Shown here in pieces: positions 8,008 through 56,099 of a stretch of 64,000 bases of DNA. Location of the stretch: positions 211,207 through 275,206 of the forward strand of contig DAOMOX010000002.1 of assembly GCA_035444565.1 (NCBI GenBank). Reading direction: 5' to 3'. The position numbers and the translations under genes were made by a program. The notes beneath the pieces were generated by a model. It made no database searches. It had not been told where the DNA came from and worked only from the letters and a program-made list of their open reading frames with translations. Positions within the stretch are counted from its first letter, which is position 1, and each line of letters opens with the position of its first letter. Origin of the DNA: Candidatus Dojkabacteria bacterium. GTDB taxonomy: Bacteria > Patescibacteriota > Dojkabacteria > B142 > OLB20.

Positions 8008-8942
8008 GTGACGGAAACTTCTTCATCAAAATAGGCCTTAAGCAATGGAGTAATTTCCTTACGCATGATAATCCCATCTCTTTCGGCGATTTCTGTTTCA
8101 AATTTAATATTCAATATCTTTTCTAAAACGTTCCCGGTCAATTCATCAATAGCCAGGAAATAGTTTCTTCCAATCTCAATATCGATACATGTTAAAAATA
8201 CGTAATCTAAATCTCTAGCTATCTTCAAGTTGTTCAGAATATTTGTAATTTCTACGAGATTCTCTTCAACGAACTGTTTAGCATTTATAATCTCAAGCTG
8301 TGCAATTCCAACTTTGATGCCTTCAAATTCTGGGGTGGAAAAGTCTCCTTCAATTATTTCTGAGAGTGGTTGTGTGAATTTTGATTTGAATTTGAACATT
8401 TCATGAATATAGTTATCTGGCTGTTCGAATTGACTTAATAACCATTCTGCCATTTTATGATCTCTTTCAGTCGTGACGTTCGCTTTGAAATTGATAGTAT
8501 TTGATACAATCGCACTATATAACAATACTGCTGATTCTTTGGATATTGAAGTTCTAGATTCATAAAACTTCTCTGCGATAAGTGTCGCAGCAGAGCCAAC
8601 TAATTCAATTTGCACTTTCGCATTTGAGAAATTATCAGCCTCATTTACCTTTCTATGATCGATTATTTCTATTACCTTTTCTGGATTAATTTTATCGGAC
8701 AATCCCCTGATATCACTTGCGTCAACGATTATTATTGAATCGATTTCCTGATTGAGTTTATTAGCATCATTTATTGGCTCGATACTGAATTTATCAAACA
8801 CATATTGCGCTTCTCTATGTGGTTTTCCAAAAACTCCCGCAACTACATTTCTCCCATTCTTGTTTAAGAATTCTGCGTATGCATAAGCACAAGCTGTGCC
8901 ATCTAAATCTGGATTTTCGTAAGCGGTGATGAGAGTTTTCAT
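8004..8942 (-). CDS. DHH/DHHA2 phosphoesterase, family-II inorganic pyrophosphatase (PpaC)-like
   Basis: 312 aa that is colinear with PpaC as I remember it (ENPDLDGTACAYAYAEF; IIVDASD; EIIDHRKV; SAIVSNTINFKANVTTERD). The canonical DHN and DHH motifs read DAS and DHR. Confidence 0.65.
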   Translation of the reverse strand: MKTLITAYENPDLDGTACAYAYAEFLNKNGRNVVAGVFGKPHREAQYVFDKFSIEPINDANKLNQEIDSIIIVDASDIRGLSDKINPEKVIEIIDHRKVNEADNFSNAKVQIELVGSAATLIAEKFYESRTSISKESAVLLYSAIVSNTINFKANVTTERDHKMAEWLLSQFEQPDNYIHEMFKFKSKFTQPLSEIIEGDFSTPEFEGIKVGIAQLEIINAKQFVEENLVEITNILNNLKIARDLDYVFLTCIDIEIGRNYFLAIDELTGNVLEKILNIKFETEIAERDGIIMRKEITPLLKAYFDEEVSVT

Positions 8943-8966: not shown

Positions 8967-9284
8967 CTATTTAATCATTATTAACACCATTTTAAATCTC
9001 TCAATCGCTTTTAATGCGTGAGGTTCATCTGCTTTCATCATTATTGTTTCCCCAGCTTTTACTTTGTGTTTCTTACCCGAAATTGTAACTTCAGCTAATC
9101 CGTCAGTTACAATCACCAACGCATCATATGGAGATTTGTGTTCGCTGAGTCCTTGACCGATATCAAATGCAAACAAAGTTACGTTTCCAGATGGTTTTTT
9201 AACAATTTCTCGACTAACTACTGAACCTTCTTGGTAATTTATTAGTTCGTTAAGATTTTTGGCTGTGTCCATTATATTTATCAA
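8967..9284 (-). CDS. cupin-2 domain protein
   Basis: 105-aa cupin barrel (GLSEHKSPYDALVIVTDGLAEVTISGKKHKVKAGETIMM). Confidence 0.65.
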   Translation of the reverse strand: MINIMDTAKNLNELINYQEGSVVSREIVKKPSGNVTLFAFDIGQGLSEHKSPYDALVIVTDGLAEVTISGKKHKVKAGETIMMKADEPHALKAIERFKMVLIMIK

Positions 9285-9325
9285 TAAAATAAGTGGTTAG
9301 ATATTGAACAGTTTTTGAAGTGGCG

Positions 9326-9575
9326 GAGCAACGCCAGGTTGCTCCCGACAACAGTAAAGCTTGACTATACCTCGTTTGACTTTACTATTCGGAGCAACGC
9401 CAGGTTGTTCCCGTCAACTGTATGGTTCATCTTCACTTCGTTTGATTCACCAACAGTTACGTAACCAAAACGAAGATTTTGTAAAACAAAATCTATTCTT
9501 TTTGCACTCACGCCAGTGTATTTGCTCGCAAACTCGCTTTTGAATGCGGAGCAACACCAGGTTGCTCCCGATAGT
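9326..9575. repeat. three copies of a palindromic GC-rich hairpin unit (GGAGCAAC-NCCAG-GTTGCTCC), two of them inside an approximately 70-bp repeated tRNA-trailer-like unit
   Basis: Copies start near 9326, 9391 and 9548. Each is an 8-bp perfect inverted repeat with a 5-nt loop. The flanking 40 nt (GGTTCA.CTTCACTT.GTTT.ATTCACCAACA) is also repeated, and the last copy is the immediate 3' trailer of tRNA-Ser. Confidence 0.6.
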
Positions 9576-9616
9576 TGTAAGGTTCAACGTCACTTTGTTC
9601 GTTTCACCAACAACTT

Positions 9617-9701
9617 CGGAGAGAGCGAGATTCGAACTCGCGGTACCTTGCGGTACACAGTCTTTCCAGGACTGCCAATTAAACCACTCTTGCATCTCTC
9701 C
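9617..9701 (-). tRNA. tRNA-Ser (anticodon GGA), class II with long variable arm
   Basis: Reverse complement folds as a cloverleaf: acceptor GGAGAGA/TCTCTCC, 3-bp D-stem, anticodon stem CAGTC/GACTG with loop CTGGAAA, variable stem-loop GTACC-GCAA-GGTAC, T-arm GCGAG-TTCGAAT-CTCGC and discriminator G. Confidence 0.9.
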
Positions 9702-9914
9702 TTATTAAGTTTTTATTGTCTTTCTCCCGTGCGTTTCATTTACGGGACTAATTCGATCTAAGCTTCGCTTTGCTCAACTTGATCTCATGAGCACGACTGC
9801 CAATCAAAACATAAAAATATTCTAGTTAGAGAAAACTCTTGTTATATCCTTGGTAGCATTAATGCGAAGAAGGACATCTCTCCTTATTTAGTTTTTATTG
9901 TCTTTCTCCCGTGC
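9693..9914. repeat. 40-bp direct repeat (39/40 identical) flanking a degraded duplicate of tRNA-Ser
   Basis: Copies at 9693-9732 and 9875-9914. The first copy holds the first 9 nt of tRNA-Ser plus its upstream region. The 142 bp between them keeps tRNA-Ser fragments (TTGGCAGTC D/anticodon segment, TCGAAT T-loop) on the minus strand. Confidence 0.55.
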
Positions 9915-9919
9915 TCTAG

Positions 9920-9957
9920 TTAATCCAGCCCTTTTATTGAGGGCTGGATTAATTTTA
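9920..9957 (+). terminator. strong hairpin (12-bp stem, TTAATCCAGCCC/GGGCTGGATTAA) followed by TTTT on the plus strand
   Basis: Perfect inverted repeat at 9920-9931 and 9941-9952 with a 9-nt loop and a T-run at 9953-9956. No plus-strand gene is evident upstream, so it may insulate the tRNA-Ser promoter region. Confidence 0.4.
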
Positions 9958-10290
9958 CCACCTCCCACGTACTTTCTCGAGAATCTTTTGATAATTTGTC
10001 AAAATAATATTTTACTACGTTGTTATATATAACATTACTTTATATATATCCCCAGGATGAATATGTCCCAGTGGCAGAGCGCTATGACGATTGATTTGTA
10101 TAAATCATGTTGTAGTGAATGGCATAATTATTCATACACAAACTCCGGGAACGAAGCCGACAACAGTATTGCTACTATAGTCGTAGACGAAAAAGGAGTT
10201 TATAGTCAACTTTAAGTAATACGAGTTGATTTTGCCTGAAAAGATTTATTCTTCCAGAAAATTTCCATGTTTAATTGCTAATATTCATTT

Positions 10291-10554
10291 ATGAAAGAAC
10301 GAATATTTAGTAAAAAAACGATATTTAGATTCATTATAGCCACCTACATCTTTTCAAGTTTTTTAGCGTTGGGAGTTATTGGGGAGAGAAATTACAGGTC
10401 GAATTTAATCAAGTATGGATATGAATTAGGAAGTGAAAAGACAATAGAAAATATTGTGGGGCAGATTGAGAGTGACCCGTGTGGCGAGATTTTAATATTT
10501 CAGAGAGATAAAAATTTCTCCCTCACTCCAAGCCAATGTTTAAAATCAAAATAA
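10291..10554 (+). CDS. small hypothetical protein with N-terminal hydrophobic segment
   Basis: 87-aa ORF with a signal/TM-like stretch (FRFIIATYIFSSFLALGVIG) and two Cys, convergent with the 1211-aa gene. A real product is uncertain. Confidence 0.3.
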   Translation: MKERIFSKKTIFRFIIATYIFSSFLALGVIGERNYRSNLIKYGYELGSEKTIENIVGQIESDPCGEILIFQRDKNFSLTPSQCLKSK

Positions 10555-10559
10555 TCAAA

Positions 10560-13500
10560 TTACTCTGTAGAAGCTTTCTTATATACCATACCTGTTCTCA
10601 ATGCCAAAATTGGTAATATAATTCTCCACAACCAGTATTTTGACATCTTAAATGATTCTATGAAGTCCACCGGTGTCTGTGTAGTATTTAATCCTCCAGA
10701 AGGTGTTAGTAATACCTTAGGTTTCAAAACAACTTGCTTGTCTTTTATGCTAGCTGCATTTTCTTGATACCAATTTTGGGCTGCTTCTTTAGTCATTCCT
10801 AATTTTTTCAATTTCTCTAGAGCCGATTCTACTGTATCAGAATCATCTAGCGTAAACTCCTTGATTAAATTATCATTTTCGTAATCTCCTGATAATTCCT
10901 TCATTCCAATTTCAATCTGTGGATGCTGGTTAAGCAAGGAGAAATTAGGACCATTACCTGACTTAAATAGTGACCCAGCCATAATAGCTGTCCACAAGGA
11001 GAGCATAAATCCTTCAAGTTTTAATTCTTTCGCTTGTTTCTCACCACCTGGTAAACCCCCTACTGACTCGATATAATCCTCCACAATCTTATCGTTTGTC
11101 GCAATGCCAAACAGAAATGCAGCAACATTATCGGCAAACATACTAACTCCTCCAGACAAAACAGTACTTAGATTAAGCTTAAGCATAAGCTTAGCCTTTG
11201 GCTCCAAATCACCCATGGCTTCGTCCACGCTACCAAATACTGATTTTGCAGACTCTATCATCGCACCAACATGCGATAATTGAGTTAACAATGCATAGAG
11301 CACTTCCTTCGCAGAATGTGATAGACCTTCTGCAATTTCTGATTCTTCGACATTAAATCCACCCATTTTAACAATTGCATCTCTTAAAGCCTGCCTATCT
11401 ACCACGTTGAGGTCATCATAAGAAAGACCCAACACTTTTGTAAGTTCAGGGTTAGCAACTCCTTCATCTAACATTTTTAATAGGGTGTCGACTAATTCAG
11501 GTTTAATGGTTGAATAGTCTATAGGTTCTTTTCCAGATCCATTTGAGAATTTTGCAATCAGCACTTCTTTGTAATCCTCAAAGAATTTATTTACCTTGCT
11601 CAATACCTTTAACATACCCTTTTCATTTCTATGTTCACCTAAACTGACTATAAATTCACTCATATATTTACTAATAGTTGTCATTTCTGCACCAGAAGGA
11701 ACATCTTCGTTTGTTCCGGTCATTACCGTAAAGGACATAATAGACTGTATGATATCAGTATTACCTGAAGCTAAATTAAATCCTTGTAAAAATTGAATGA
11801 ATTCCTCGTATGATATTTCTTGTCCTTCCACCAATCTGTCGAAAATGGTAAGCCCTGCTTCGTGATGTTCATCAGTTTCTAAAAATACAGCTTTATCCAC
11901 TAGTTCTCTTGGATCCTTCACAGCGCCCTTTACTGTCGAAAATACATTTACTACGCCATCTTGAAGTGTATGGCCAAGTGCCTTTAAACTATTAGTCACC
12001 ACATACCCGGGCATAACGAAAGATCGAGAATCTGTAATTTTAACTTTTGCAAAAAATTCTCTAACTAATGCATCTGACCTAGATTCGTCTGGGGACAATT
12101 CTAGTACTTCTCTTATAAATTGACCTAAATCAAATTCTAATTCGGGGTTCTCATCTCTATATAATTTAGCCTTCTCTATAAGATCATCATATGAACTTAT
12201 ACTTGAAGGGTCAGTTGATTCGAGGAAAGTAAGAAATTCATATTCAGTAACAACTCCTTTTAATTTAGTTATATCTACAGCAGTGGATTCTTTCAGGTTA
12301 TACGAAAGTTGCTCAATTTCCGCCCTTATCGATGCTTTCTCTTCTGACGGCATGACTTCTTTACTCAAGTGTTTTAATAAAGTATCAAGAGATATTACAG
12401 ATCCATCTCCTTTATAAAGTGAACGAAATGCATCATGATGTTCAATATCCGAGAACTTCACAACTCTGAAGTCTTCAATGTCCACGACTGTAGTTCCTCT
12501 CATAATCTCTTTTATTGTGGTCAATGGGTTTATCAGACCTTCCCCAACCTTACCAAGACCTATACCTATACCTTTTCCAAATTCAGATACAAATCTTGGA
12601 TTAGTAAGTGGATTTATTCCAAAAGATTCCTTCAGTGACCAACCAGAAGCGGTTAATCCTGATGCAAACGTAGCAATAATACCTTCCCCTTGACTTTTCT
12701 TAATATACTCAGGGAGGAAATCTCTTTCTAATGCTTCAGTTATTGCAAAAATGTTAGGAGGATCGCCTATCCCTATTAAGCCTGATGCATTTGCTGCATA
12801 GAACATTATTGCACCTCTTAAGCCACCTAGTTTGTTCATATTGATTGAAGTTTCAACCGCACTTGTGGCCTCTATAATCTCCATAGCGGTCTCTAAGTCT
12901 TTCGATACATTTAAACCATTTAGGTTTTCTAACATATTCTCAATCATTTTCTTTTTTGTTGCTATGTCTAGCAATTCATTTCCTAATTGGTTACCTAAGT
13001 CAGCCCCTAGATATGTTGTGAAAATGGGTGATAGTGCACCAATCATTCCCATTCCTCTAGAAGTAGTTGAAACTAACATGTCTTTGTAAAATCTATTCAA
13101 TCTTTCTAAATCTTCTCTCAATTCTTCTTGTTGATGAACTCTTTCTTCCTCATCTTCTACATTAAATTTTTGAATCTTTTCTGTTACAACTTTTCTTAAA
13201 TCTGCGGAAGAATAATCAATAGTCGAGCGATCATCATCTTCAGTACTAACAGACTCGAAGAAATTAAATTGCTTTTCACCTTCATCTACTAATTCTTGTT
13301 CTCTTTCTCTTCCCAGTAGGCTTTTGGTCCTTTCTATAAATCCTCTTTTTGGTTTGTCCGTTCCAATTCTTTCCTCATCTAAGTTTAATTGTTCGATGAT
13401 TTTATTTTCCATCAAAGCAGTTATGTTTGTTAAGACAGACAGTGCACCTGTTAAGATCAGATTAATAGGTGGAGTACCTCCCGTAAGTTCATGGATTATC

Positions 13501-14195
13501 TCATGTCCAAAATGCTTGTCAGCTTCATTACCATATTTTTGGAGAATAAAATCACAGGTATAAGCTAATCCTATGGATCTAGCTGCACTAAATTCGTTAA
13601 ATGTTTTCTCACCTTTACTTTTCGCGATTTGACCTACTGTGGTTGCAAAATGAACAAGCATCACACCCATTACTCCTTTACCAAGATAGGAAAGCTTTTC
13701 TTCTGAGTGTGAGTCTTCCTCTACAATTTCATCACCACTGTCATTTCTTCCTGCAGCCTCCAGTTCATCTTTAATATTCTGCAGCTTCTTTTCAAATTCC
13801 TCGTCTGTCAGATTATCTGCGGGATTGGCAGAATCTAAATTATTACCCCTATTACCTTTACCTTTGGCACTTTTTCCGTCAACCACTGAACCAGTAATTC
13901 CATTTGAATTGGCATCACCTGTATCTGGTTTGGGAATTATTCTTCTTAGAAACGGATTAGTTATAACAGGAGTAATAGCAGCCATGGCAAGAGTTTTTCC
14001 CAAGAAATCTCTTCTACCTTCATCAACAACTTTATTCTTTCCACCGCCGAATATCCTATCGCAAACATTCAAATATAATCCTACTAATGTTGGATCTGGT
14101 TCAGAGTATTCCGGCCTAGTTCCACCTTCAGGAAACATATCTCCCATCCTGCCTACAGGACCTTTCATATGTTGTTCTATTAATTCGTCAACCAT
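10560..14195 (-). CDS. giant (about 1200 aa) protein of unknown function with twin-arginine-like motif, HExxH motif and C-terminal hydrophobic segment
   Basis: RRDFLGK followed by the hydrophobic TLAMAAITPVI sits about 60 aa into the annotated ORF. An in-frame TTG 19 codons upstream of RR could be the true start. An internal HEIIH motif is present, and a C-terminal hydrophobic stretch (YWLWRIILPILAL) is followed by KK. Otherwise there are no recognisable domains. Confidence 0.6.
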   Translation of the reverse strand: MVDELIEQHMKGPVGRMGDMFPEGGTRPEYSEPDPTLVGLYLNVCDRIFGGGKNKVVDEGRRDFLGKTLAMAAITPVITNPFLRRIIPKPDTGDANSNGITGSVVDGKSAKGKGNRGNNLDSANPADNLTDEEFEKKLQNIKDELEAAGRNDSGDEIVEEDSHSEEKLSYLGKGVMGVMLVHFATTVGQIAKSKGEKTFNEFSAARSIGLAYTCDFILQKYGNEADKHFGHEIIHELTGGTPPINLILTGALSVLTNITALMENKIIEQLNLDEERIGTDKPKRGFIERTKSLLGREREQELVDEGEKQFNFFESVSTEDDDRSTIDYSSADLRKVVTEKIQKFNVEDEEERVHQQEELREDLERLNRFYKDMLVSTTSRGMGMIGALSPIFTTYLGADLGNQLGNELLDIATKKKMIENMLENLNGLNVSKDLETAMEIIEATSAVETSINMNKLGGLRGAIMFYAANASGLIGIGDPPNIFAITEALERDFLPEYIKKSQGEGIIATFASGLTASGWSLKESFGINPLTNPRFVSEFGKGIGIGLGKVGEGLINPLTTIKEIMRGTTVVDIEDFRVVKFSDIEHHDAFRSLYKGDGSVISLDTLLKHLSKEVMPSEEKASIRAEIEQLSYNLKESTAVDITKLKGVVTEYEFLTFLESTDPSSISSYDDLIEKAKLYRDENPELEFDLGQFIREVLELSPDESRSDALVREFFAKVKITDSRSFVMPGYVVTNSLKALGHTLQDGVVNVFSTVKGAVKDPRELVDKAVFLETDEHHEAGLTIFDRLVEGQEISYEEFIQFLQGFNLASGNTDIIQSIMSFTVMTGTNEDVPSGAEMTTISKYMSEFIVSLGEHRNEKGMLKVLSKVNKFFEDYKEVLIAKFSNGSGKEPIDYSTIKPELVDTLLKMLDEGVANPELTKVLGLSYDDLNVVDRQALRDAIVKMGGFNVEESEIAEGLSHSAKEVLYALLTQLSHVGAMIESAKSVFGSVDEAMGDLEPKAKLMLKLNLSTVLSGGVSMFADNVAAFLFGIATNDKIVEDYIESVGGLPGGEKQAKELKLEGFMLSLWTAIMAGSLFKSGNGPNFSLLNQHPQIEIGMKELSGDYENDNLIKEFTLDDSDTVESALEKLKKLGMTKEAAQNWYQENAASIKDKQVVLKPKVLLTPSGGLNTTQTPVDFIESFKMSKYWLWRIILPILALRTGMVYKKASTE

Positions 14196-17984: not shown

Positions 17985-18425
17985 GAAGTTGGGATTAACT
18001 GTTTCGTAAGCCGGATTCTGTATCCTCGCGCTATGCGCAATTGAGATAGTCATTTGTCTATGCCCCCTATTACGAGGTTGCTCCGAGCAGGGGTTACCAT
18101 GCACTTATTTGTTGCCAAATAAGCCGGTGGTCTCTTACACGCCCTTTGATGTACTAATTATCAAAAGACACTGGCTTGGCCAGCCACCTTTTCAAGTTCA
18201 CTTATAGATATTCGTCTTCATTACGATCTTTTTCAGGCGGGCTGACAACCCATTCCTTCTATAAGTACTTTGCTCTCTGTTGCCCTTTTATCCGTAAGTT
18301 CACACCTACCCAGCCACTTCGTCTTCACTTATGTGAGGATCTGTGAATGGTACCCATCCCGTTTTAAAACGAGACAGAAATGGAGTCCGGACTTTCCTCC
18401 CCTCTTTCTAATTCCCAAAGGACCA
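17985..18425 (-). ncRNA. rnpB: RNase P RNA, bacterial type A
   Basis: Reverse complement carries the universal blocks GGAGGAAAGTCCGGACTCC (P4 5' strand), GGGCAACAGAGAGCAAA, GTGTAAGAGACCACC, GGAGCAA…AATAGGGG, AAATGACTATC and ACAGAATCCGGCTTA (P4 3' strand) in the canonical order. An AT-rich insertion sits in the middle, and the ends are approximate (about 15 nt either way). The track ORFs 18270-18455(+), 18380-18562(+) and 18460-18681(-) fall in the GC-rich rnpB zone (the last also lies inside the 185-aa gene) and are treated as spurious. Confidence 0.8.
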
Positions 18426-18472
18426 AGAAGGAGGAGCGACCATCAAAAACAGTGATTAATTATATCACGGAA

Positions 18473-52340: not shown

Positions 52341-52412
52341 TGACCCCTACGGGACTCGAACCCGTGTTACTACCTTGAGAAGGTAACGTCCTAACCACTA
52401 GACGAAGGGGCC
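52341..52412 (-). tRNA. tRNA-Glu (anticodon CUC)
   Basis: Reverse complement GGCCCCTTCGTCTAGTGGTTAGGACGTTACCTTCTCAAGGTAGTAACACGGGTTCGAGTCCCGTAGGGGTCA folds as a cloverleaf. The anticodon loop is TTCTCAA and the T-loop is TTCGAGT. Confidence 0.9.
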
Positions 52413-55756: not shown

Positions 55757-55901
55757 GAGATGATTGTTGAAGTATTTCCTGCAGTTATTTCTCCAAACAG
55801 GCTTTTCGCCCTTACATTTCTAAACGACATATGAGTCATGCCTTCATTACATTTCGGCAGACTTTATTTTGCAACTTTTCGCTAAGCTCAAAGGCAAAAT
55901 A

Positions 55902-55973
55902 TGAGCTGGGCGGGGCTCGAACCCGCAACAAACGGCTTAAGAGGCCGCTGCTCTACCATTGAGCTACCAGCCC
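55902..55973 (-). tRNA. tRNA-Lys (anticodon CUU)
   Basis: Reverse complement GGGCTGGTAGCTCAATGGTAGAGCAGCGGCCTCTTAAGCCGTTTGTTGCGGGTTCGAGCCCCGCCCAGCTCA. The anticodon loop is CTCTTAA. Confidence 0.9.
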
Positions 55974-55989
55974 ATTAGATATAAATTAC

Positions 55990-56063
55990 TGCACCCGGAG
56001 GGACTCGAACCCCCACAAACCTAGTTCCGAAGACTAGTGCTCTATCCATTGAGCTACGGGTGC
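55990..56063 (-). tRNA. tRNA-Arg (anticodon UCG)
   Basis: Reverse complement GCACCCGTAGCTCAATGGATAGAGCACTAGTCTTCGGAACTAGGTTTGTGGGGGTTCGAGTCCCTCCGGGTGCA. The anticodon loop is CTTCGGA. Confidence 0.9.
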
Positions 56064-56099
56064 ATATCAAAATTTAGACTCAATATTTTCTTTATTAAA

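Follow-up and report, generated by a model that had tools for sequence, protein, structure and literature searches.

The tRNA-Ser(GGA) locus described here lies on the minus strand of a 64-kb stretch of DNA (the window) from a Candidatus Dojkabacteria metagenome-assembled genome (35% GC). It consists of one intact tRNA gene, a leader region with a tRNA-Ser 5' half (the relic) and a pair of 40-nt direct repeats on one side, and three hairpin-forming repeat units (A, B and C) on the other. With about half of our confidence, the locus is read as an array of leader/tRNA/trailer blocks that has decayed and keeps recombining, forming a hotspot around this single tRNA-Ser(GGA) gene that differs between strains. 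Every module of the locus is polymorphic among related strains. Their comparison shows a deletion between the 40-mers (in contig L023), a deletion between AGTCG repeats (in the relic of L025), hybrid tRNA genes, variation in the number of units and co-variation of a motif within the locus.

Modules of the locus and their variation among related strains

In the 5' to 3' direction of the minus strand, the locus is composed of the following features:

9952-9980, minus strand: promoter-like site TCGAGA-17 nt-TAAAAT with upstream TG (extended -10), found by consensus scan, heading the whole tRNA-Ser locus
9920-9952, no strand: palindromic hairpin with 13-bp arms (TTAATCCAGCCCT / AGGGCTGGATTAA) and a T-rich tail on the plus strand
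9875-9914, minus strand: distal 40-mer, the last 31 nt of the leader plus tRNA nt 1-9, 39/40 identical to 9693-9732
9792-9883, minus strand: relic 5' half of tRNA-Ser, made up of nt 1-9 (9875-9883), a 71-nt filler (9804-9874) and TTGGCAGTCGTG (9792-9803)
9702-9791, minus strand: leader ('module R') from the relic to the intact tRNA, about 90 nt, present in every relative in two alignable forms
9693-9732, minus strand: proximal 40-mer, from repeat alignment
9617-9701, minus strand: intact tRNA-Ser(GGA), 85 nt, CCA not encoded (ARAGORN; Rfam tRNA model, 51.3 bits)
9547-9616, minus strand: unit A, hairpins H1 and H2 (GGAGCAAC-CTGGT-GTTGCTCC-G, 9547-9568), 88.5 bits with the covariance model of the units
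9460-9546, minus strand: putative terminator module of 87 nt, AT-rich hairpin AGATTTTG/CAAAATCT followed by the U-rich tail TTCGTTTTGG, fold z -1.2
9390-9459, minus strand: unit B, H1 (starting AACTGTTGGTG) and H2 with one A-C mismatch (GGAACAAC/GTTGCTCC, 9390-9411), from repeat alignment and fold
9324-9389, minus strand: unit C, H1 (AGTAAAG/CTTTACT) and a perfect H2 (9324-9345), from repeat alignment and fold
9270-9323, minus strand: CCA and the flank CTTCAAAAAC...ATG of the cupin gene, start codon at 9272

The tRNA-Ser with repeated trailers reported in the initial annotation is therefore present, with a correction of the strand: since the gene is on the minus strand, the trailers are found at lower coordinates and the 'upstream' relic at higher ones. 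The Rfam match of the tRNA was obtained in E-value mode, the default Rfam filters having missed it. An assembly artefact is ruled out, as three assemblies agree. Contig L022 (ENA ERZ773355) carries an identical locus and differs from the window by 1 mismatch in 5159 bp (at 8214), and L048 (Logan SRR1763385) is 100% identical over 8980-13054. Small open reading frames (ORFs) across the region (e.g. 9447-9695, minus strand) start within the tRNA, are uncalled in relatives and were dismissed on inspection.

Relatives were fetched via the neighbouring genes, with flanks of approximately 2.5 to 6 kb. Common to all of them are the promoter-like block and the flanking genes for proteins of 52, 87 and 1211 amino acids; the tRNA locus between them is a mosaic, of which the following variants were found:

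L004 and L018, contigs L013-L019: relic, leader and a different tRNA-Ser allele with encoded CCA abutting the cupin flank; no units
L012 and L010: palindrome, 40-mer, relic, a third tRNA allele, and an inositol-phosphatase gene before the cupin gene
L006: allele 2, CCA and terminator module, then a RibD_C / APH / peptidase S51 / glyoxalase block
L020: hybrid tRNA, one unit, then CCACTTCAAAAC
L021 and L025-L031: 1211-aa protein only 50% identical; tRNA equal to the 85 nt of the window, CCA and terminator module
L035: relic with uninterrupted nt 1-34, leader; one decayed unit B downstream
L036: type-2 relic, tRNA and CCA, terminator module, a second partial copy of it, orthologs of units B and C, CCACTTCAAAAAC, cupin gene
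L023: window-like, with the 182 bp between the 40-mers gone

The presence/absence polymorphism among strains, suggested as a check by the initial annotation, is thus seen for every module, and the orthologous site carries three units in the window, two in L036, one in L020, one decayed in L035 and none in L004/L018, L012, L006 and L025. The downstream gene content differs in nearly every strain. The window and L004 share 97.9% identity upstream, 76% in the locus and 85.7% downstream; although the flanks of L004 are approximately 98% identical to those of the window, it has a different tRNA-Ser allele. Comparison of the tRNA-Ser(GGA) genes (window 9617-9701, L004:5533-5622, L012:1979-2063, L020:6864-6950, L021:6931-7018 and those of L035/L036) revealed at least five alleles, built from three 5' types (1, 1' and 2) and four 3' types (a, a', b and c), the halves being shuffled around the invariant 19-nt anticodon arm GCAGTCCTGGAAAGACTGT. 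Of the original proposal of repeated insertion, excision or duplication at a tRNA, or a small mobile repeat family, repeated duplication, deletion and replacement at the tRNA gene is supported by the L023 deletion, the at least five shuffled alleles and the variable downstream genes. The first 25-35 nt of L013-L019, seven short-read contigs from different runs, start inside the invariant tRNA-Ser anticodon arm; contigs breaking at this point suggest co-occurring alleles in one sample.

The 40-nt direct repeat (9693-9732 and 9875-9914, 39/40 identical) comprises tRNA nt 1-9 and 31 nt upstream, and alignment confirmed the earlier description of it in full. L020 has the distal copy unchanged, and L010 and L012 have it in nearly the same form. 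The two copies of the window resemble each other more than either resembles its orthologs. In L023, the proximal 40-mer is joined straight to the sequence past the distal copy, a 182-bp deletion exactly between the 40-mers that would have arisen by their recombination.

The relic has the same orientation as the intact tRNA-Ser. Its TTGGCAGTCGTG segment (9792-9803) corresponds to the 3' side of the D-stem, the 5' strand of the anticodon stem and the first three loop bases (approximately nt 22-34). The relic of L035 matches nt 1-34 of the window tRNA without interruption (36/36 identical including two upstream bases), so that the relic is to be regarded as a tRNA-Ser 5' half broken in the anticodon loop. 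The break follows CAGTC(C/G)TG at position 34/35 in all variants. The relic of L036 is a type-2 5' half, and that of L025 is of the L036 type but has undergone a deletion between a pair of AGTCG repeats (by reading). Neither ARAGORN nor the Rfam tRNA model (at E<=10) returned a match in the relic, only 9617-9701 being found; since the Rfam model fails to score it, the relic is a 5' fragment and not a full pseudogene. It had been described as containing D-arm and T-loop pieces. The tRNA pieces (nt 1-9 and TTGGCAGTCGTG) stand, but the 'T-loop' GATCGAAT is unconserved in relatives and unsupported. The 71-nt filler (9804-9874, minus strand) stands in place of the D loop in the relics of the window, L004, L012 and L020, those of L035 and L036 being without it. 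It contains a nested palindrome, TCCTTC..GCATTAATGC..GAAGGA, which is imperfect in the window.

The interval between relic and tRNA measures 84-96 nt in all variants and holds no ORF. The 3' hairpin region of module R in relatives contains a core motif, AAACGAAGTG or AACAAAGTGRAG, that is common to the units (the window copy is AAATGAAACG). The former is found in B-type units and the leaders of L025 and L035, the latter in C-type units, unit A and the leaders of L012 and L020. In L036, the variant AAACGGAGTG is present in both the leader and unit B, which points to paralogy or gene conversion. RNAalifold consistently predicted only a CCC..GGG hairpin for module R (nine variants). The leader was also considered as signal recognition particle RNA, 6S RNA or another structured RNA and rejected: it has no Rfam match, and this one short hairpin is all that the fold supports.

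The block GGTGGTAAAATTA, which would act as the promoter by its similarity to the consensus, is kept in L003/L004, L012, L018, L020, L022, L023, L025-L033, L035 and L036 and, by reading, also in L006 and L021. With its T-rich tail on the plus strand, the hairpin at 9920-9952 looks like a terminator for antisense transcripts. It is the strong hairpin noted beyond the relic at the outset, with arms of 13 rather than 12 bp. The palindrome is an indel polymorphism, present in the window, L012, L020, L022, L023 and L048 and absent at the same spot in L004, L006, L025, L035 and L036.

Repeat units downstream of the tRNA gene

Three units of 66-70 nt each (A 9547-9616, B 9390-9459, C 9324-9389) are located 3' of tRNA-Ser, and the palindromes are embedded in this three-copy repeat family (approximately 76 nt, 66-79% identity between copies). 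Each unit is built of an H1 hairpin of 43-47 nt, a linker of 3-4 nt and the 8-bp GC hairpin H2 (GGAGCAAC-CTGGY-GTTGCTCC), followed by G. The pattern GGAGCAACNCCAGGTTGCTCC has three matches in the 64 kb (9325-9345, 9391-9411 and 9548-9568), where none is expected (100 shuffles). Of the three perfect 8-bp palindromes claimed initially, those of units A and C are perfect, whereas the middle copy has one mismatch (GTTGTTCC). The spacing of the units is irregular (66 and 157 nt), B and C being adjacent and A being separated from B by the terminator module.

The curious feature of the units is that hairpins looking like acceptor stems are placed precisely between the discriminator G73 and CCA, both in the window and in relatives. 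By reading, the H2 stem GGAG...CTCC plus G equals the first four acceptor pairs and the discriminator base of every tRNA-Ser allele seen (G1-C72, G2-C71, A3-U70, G4-C69 and G73), and every unit terminates in CTCCG, as tRNA-Ser does. Unit A abuts G73 and is inserted between it and a degenerate CCA (CAT). In L025, where the tRNA is that of the window, there is no unit A, and CCA and the terminator module follow directly. In L004, L018 and L013-L019, the cupin flank comes directly after G73 (...CTCCTCCG|CCACTTCAAGAA...), while the junction of unit C and the flank in the window reads ...GTTGCTCCG|CCACTTCAAAAAC. A cassette model, with Inositol_P and other genes inserted at G73|CCA, fails on L012, which is without the CCGCCA/CTTCAA junction before the cupin gene. 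Displaced tRNA 3' halves were likewise rejected as the source of the units: local alignments were not significant against shuffles, bar one 10-nt match, ACTGTTGGTG, between unit B and nt 40-49 of allele 2b (p ~0.015, uncorrected).

The ortholog of unit B in L036 is identical at 65 of 70 positions and retains the A-C mismatch, and the decayed ortholog in L035 reached 55 bits with the covariance model of the units, although it is outside the sequences of the model. The ortholog of unit C has GGAGCGGC/GCTGCTCC as H2 in L036, a double change from A-U to G-C, and GGAGTAAC/GCTGCTTC in L020. Ortholog identity is approximately 93% for unit B and 79% for unit C (by eye), compared with 89.6% for the whole collinear block; the orthologous units thus appear to diverge roughly as fast as the flanks. 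The units fold better than shuffled sequences, with z-values of -3.2 to -3.7. The H1 register differs between B-type and C-type units, the unit B mismatch is A-C on the sense strand and would be G-U on the antisense strand, and the copies of L020 and L035 are decaying.

H2 is followed by CATTCAAA, AATAGTAA or CCACTTCA, not by a U tract, and a scan of 9200-10120 for intrinsic terminators returned no terminator-like site. The module at 9460-9546 fails this strict scan because its stem is AT-rich (GC criterion); judged by its hairpin and U-rich tail, it probably works as a terminator. Its ortholog stands straight after tRNA-CCA in L006, L021/L025, L035 and L036. By reading, the module of relatives starts with ATATACT|GGAGTGAGTGCA (ATACT|GGAGTGAGTGCA), close to ATACT|GGAGGAGTCGCA of tRNA allele 2, and ends with GCCTCCG, so that it looks like a gutted tRNA-Ser. 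L036 has two copies of the module, and in L035 approximately 140 nt of additional structured sequence (GGATGCCCGTCCTCCAGAGGAGGAT...) come after it; variation of the trailer region is not limited to the units.

Further copies of the units were searched for with a covariance model built from six units. Run with filters off on the 64 kb, it returned only the three units (78-93 bits), the next match having 10 bits (E ~1), and on 92 kb of relatives it returned orthologous copies only, including the decayed one of L035. A pattern search of the window with three mismatches found nothing outside the locus, H2-like sequences with up to 5 substitutions in 22 positions were confined to this locus in all DNA fetched, and other tRNA loci in the window have no comparable repeats. 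Exact hairpin scans of 185,579 GTDB species genomes, the JGI metagenomes and IMG/VR gave chance matches only, in GC-rich coding sequences of unrelated organisms; such scans are weak negatives, because diverged copies (e.g. that of L020) would escape them. Known RNA families were excluded as well, since apart from the tRNA there is no Rfam match at the locus (at the gathering threshold window-wide and at E<=10 on 9200-10100). The repeats are therefore unique to this locus, as fixed tRNA-processing signals had been expected to be in the initial annotation, but they are not conserved identically in relatives and so are not such signals either.

Preferred reading, alternatives and known systems

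In a recombining array, the substrates would be short repeats common to the blocks: the 40-mer, the core motif, the CTCCG ends and the 19-nt anticodon arm. These may be acted on by slippage, unequal crossing-over and gene conversion, and by homologous or illegitimate recombination with strains that occur alongside, all of which would add, delete and swap modules and tRNA halves. By the shared core motif and the tRNA-like ends of the terminator module, the locus looks like a series of leader/tRNA/trailer blocks, which would be in different states of decay and homogenised now and then by gene conversion. The CCA and cupin flank would once have directly followed the tRNA. Function would be needed only of the intact tRNA and the terminator module, while the other pieces would be dispensable and the hairpins may persist as palindromes, possibly harmless as 3' trailer structures. 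These recombination mechanisms are inferred, as is the descent of the units from trailer or pseudo-tRNA blocks.

Several points weigh against this reading. In the six unit sequences, which are related paralogs and orthologs, 92.9% of the pair cells are standard pairs, compared with 87.8% after shuffling (reached by 3 of 500 shuffles), and four pairs are changed on both sides (matched by 9 of 500 shuffles), including the A-U to G-C change in H2 of unit C of L036. Furthermore, the fold of H1 is more stable on the tRNA-sense strand than on the opposite one (e.g. -11.8 versus -3.8 kcal/mol for L036_B). Such pairing-preserving substitutions hint at some constraint, which is not expected of pure scars. 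Templated correction within palindromes would likewise yield symmetric changes, and may be the source of those in the hairpins here. The likeness between units and tRNA is weak (CTCCG and the 10-nt match), so a pseudo-tRNA origin of the GC hairpin is no more than tentative. Crossover by a tyrosine integrase classically leaves a 5' half that is cut precisely in the anticodon loop. Finally, out of a genome of 621 kb, the search for further copies covers the 64 kb of the window and that for an integrase its positions 1-17 kb, besides the fetched flanks of relatives.

Insertion by tyrosine recombinases was taken seriously, even if it is considered unlikely, because crossovers centred on the anticodon leave behind 5' halves like the relic. 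According to this explanation, integrative elements entered the tRNA gene repeatedly, both at its 3' end and in the anticodon loop, where they displaced the 5' half; the units, ending in CTCCG, would be attL/attR remnants and the cargo, integrase included, would have been lost later. It agrees with the relic stopping at anticodon-loop position 34, the shuffling of tRNA halves at the anticodon arm, the variation between strains of the genes adjoining the tRNA, and the geometry of the GC hairpin, which is that of a core site (inverted arms of 7-8 bp with 5-7 nt between them). Moreover, tRNA-Ser(GGA) is a real target elsewhere, as a tyrosine integrase adjoins an anticodon-to-3'-end tRNA-Ser fragment on IMG/VR contig L039, and Islander holds 2083 anticodon-centred sites and 159 islands out of 3919 with 5' fragments of the tRNA gene (tDNA) (PMC4383910). 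On the other hand, no integrase was found in the window from 1 to 17 kb or among the called genes of the fetched flanks, which represent about ten variants of the locus. The interval of 84-96 nt between relic and tRNA is kept in all variants, a remnant that independent losses of cargo would not leave each time, and the units are unlike the 3' portion of the tRNA. Boundaries of gene content lack tDNA fragments (e.g. L012, without CCGCCA before the cupin gene), and neither the Dojkabacteria anticodon-arm 21-mer nor the unit hairpin occurs in any IMG/VR contig.

The units may act at the RNA level, but their being a functional structured RNA, transcribed with or after tRNA-Ser and serving as 3'-processing signals or as acceptor/variable-arm mimics, is regarded as improbable; in one form of it, the acceptor-like microhelix with G(CCA) would be a target of the CCA-adding enzyme, RNase Z or RNase P. 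The match of H2 to the acceptor pairs and G73 of every allele, with CCA after the last unit, would suit such a role, as would the hairpin-preserving changes (the A-U to G-C double change and G-U wobbles), the sense-strand preference of H1 and the fold z-values. Unit A precedes the terminator and so would be co-transcribed with tRNA-Ser, whereas units B and C lie beyond this module. Most close relatives have no units at all, including strains with identical downstream genes. The differing H1 registers, the A-C mismatch retained in unit B on the sense strand, the decaying copies in L020 and L035, a divergence about that of the flanks and the lack of an Rfam match at E<=10 argue in the same direction. 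We give little credence to the units being a new class of tRNA-end-linked hairpin element, either transcribed acceptor/variable-arm mimics or hairpin recombination sites. The former version would have a GGAG...CTCC-G(CCA) microhelix and a long hairpin, cut by RNase P/RNase Z, as processing signals or decoys; in the latter, bacteria of the candidate phyla radiation (CPR) would swap tRNA alleles and neighbouring genes at G73|CCA without a nearby integrase. The palindromes had also been proposed as protein-binding sites, and being near-perfect (8+5+8), present in three copies and, in the nearest case, about 50 bp upstream of the cupin start codon, they might as 21-bp operators bind a dimeric regulator of the downstream cupin/DHH genes or of the tRNA. 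This is very unlikely, as strains with a 100% identical cupin protein (L018, L013-L019) carry neither units nor palindrome, and the half-sites change symmetrically by compensatory or wobble substitutions, which fits base pairing and not a fixed recognition sequence. The sole nearby DNA-binding domain is the winged-helix/MarR-like C-terminus of a Fic protein, approximately 4.5 kb away, whose gene is also found in relatives without the palindrome. The least probable explanation is a dispersed miniature mobile repeat clustering here by chance, similar to repetitive extragenic palindromes (REP), bacterial interspersed mosaic elements (BIME) or miniature inverted-repeat transposable elements (MITEs). 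A small mobile repeat family had been suggested initially, and there are indeed several palindromic copies, each flanked by CTCCG that can be read as a target duplication. However, copies are restricted to this locus in the 64 kb (covariance model, filters off) and to the orthologous site in relatives, exact hairpin matches in the genome, metagenome and viral collections do not exceed chance, terminal inverted repeats are missing, and CTCC belongs to the hairpin stem and not to a duplication.

Unrelated viral or integrative contigs of IMG/VR with a GC content of 0.50-0.60 (L039:4400-5940, L044, L045/L038 and L046) contain a tRNA-Ser(GGA) fragment from the anticodon arm to the 3' end, the last 23 nt being equal to those of the window, followed by repeated short motifs; they are textbook anticodon-centred phage attachment (attP) sites. 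The tyrosine integrase of L039 has Arm-DNA-bind_5, SAM-like and catalytic domains. A phage attP for the Dojkabacteria tRNA was rejected as a candidate: its anticodon-arm 21-mer is not in IMG/VR, and the 23-nt 3' end is common to unrelated elements of approximately 50% GC.

Among known systems, the trailer of E. coli tyrT, the source of rtT/rttR RNA, is the closest analogue in form of the array preferred here, as both have tandem units immediately 3' of a tRNA gene. The tyrT units, said to have been described by Egan and Landy in 1978, reportedly measure 178 bp and occur in 3.14 copies with 19 nt of the tRNA each. In contrast, the units here have 66-70 nt and share only CTCCG and the acceptor-like stem with the tRNA; they are interrupted by the terminator module and vary from 0 to 3 copies between close strains. 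A cmscan of 9200-10100 at E<=10 gave no match to the RtT family in Rfam. According to PMC3318445 (citing Bosl & Kersten 1991), each tyrT repeat unit includes the tRNA 3' end and one is released as RNA from the tRNA transcript; the repeats are attributed to duplication or unequal crossing-over.

The closest analogue in process are islands with tDNA fragments (Islander; sublocation classes of Williams 2002), which likewise combine an intact tRNA with its own fragment in direct orientation, a break in the anticodon loop and variable neighbouring genes (PMC4383910). Unlike these, the locus has no integrase or kb-scale island, its fragment is separated from the tRNA by approximately 90 nt and is of the rarer 5' type, and the downstream 'fragments' are not 3' portions of the tRNA. 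Without homology to RtT and without integrase or island, the locus belongs to neither class by its defining properties. REP/BIME and MITEs are also short, GC-rich, intergenic and sometimes clustered palindromes, but are dispersed in tens to hundreds of copies, compared with three at one locus in 64 kb; the unit ends AAGTTGTTGG... and ...CCTGGTGTTG are not the inverted repeats of a MITE (by reading). Integron attC sites resemble the units in forming hairpin repeats with structure better kept than sequence, in arrays of one orientation beside variable genes, and in their AAC/GTT stem ends. They differ from them in that no IntI is encoded here, each unit has two short separate hairpins instead of one long imperfect hairpin, no gene cassettes lie between units (B and C being adjacent) and the R''/R' consensus is only partly matched (by reading). 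Type III toxin-antitoxin RNAs and CRISPR are set apart by the irregular spacing and by the neighbours, which encode a cupin protein, a DHH phosphoesterase and a protein without Pfam domain.

The streamlined CPR genome of approximately 0.6 Mb thus keeps a non-coding hotspot of about 650 bp at tRNA-Ser(GGA), where strains that occur together would exchange the tRNA allele, parts of its leader and trailer, and the genes beside it. The locus alone reveals no new mechanism; it is a known kind of hotspot in an unusual host with a very small genome, and a natural marker of recombination in Dojkabacteria. For annotation, the relic and the hairpins should be called neither genes nor a mobile family, and for strain-resolved metagenomics it matters that assemblies break at this locus.

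Neighbouring genes and other RNA genes of the window

No Pfam domain is found in the 1211-aa protein (10560-14195, minus strand). Among 5.8 billion proteins, just five clusters are homologous to it, and its homologs all adjoin this tRNA-Ser locus in Dojkabacteria-like contigs. The ORFs for 52 and 87 amino acids (10057-10215 and 10291-10554, plus strand) are divergent from the tRNA and kept in all relatives; three homologous clusters were found in the database for the 52-aa protein and no domain match for the 87-aa one. A restriction-modification pair of the HaeIII type (RE_HaeIII and DNA_methylase) follows the DHH gene in L003/L004 (7003-8972) and L012 (4333-6302) and is absent from the window. 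In L003/L004, it sits ahead of a Zn-peptidase gene, a strain-specific indel near the tRNA-Ser locus.

The Lys and Arg tRNA genes of the window (52341-52412 and 55901-56064, minus strand) do not encode CCA, whereas several tRNA-Ser alleles of relatives have CCA after G73. Neither repeated trailers nor relics accompany the Lys, Arg and Glu tRNA genes. A ribosomal-protein operon in the window was assigned from ORF sizes and order only. The bacterial class A RNase P RNA at 17992-18455 (minus strand) has 464 nt, compared with 367 positions of the model, and scored 110 bits (gathering score 100); it presumably is a divergent CPR version with insertions.

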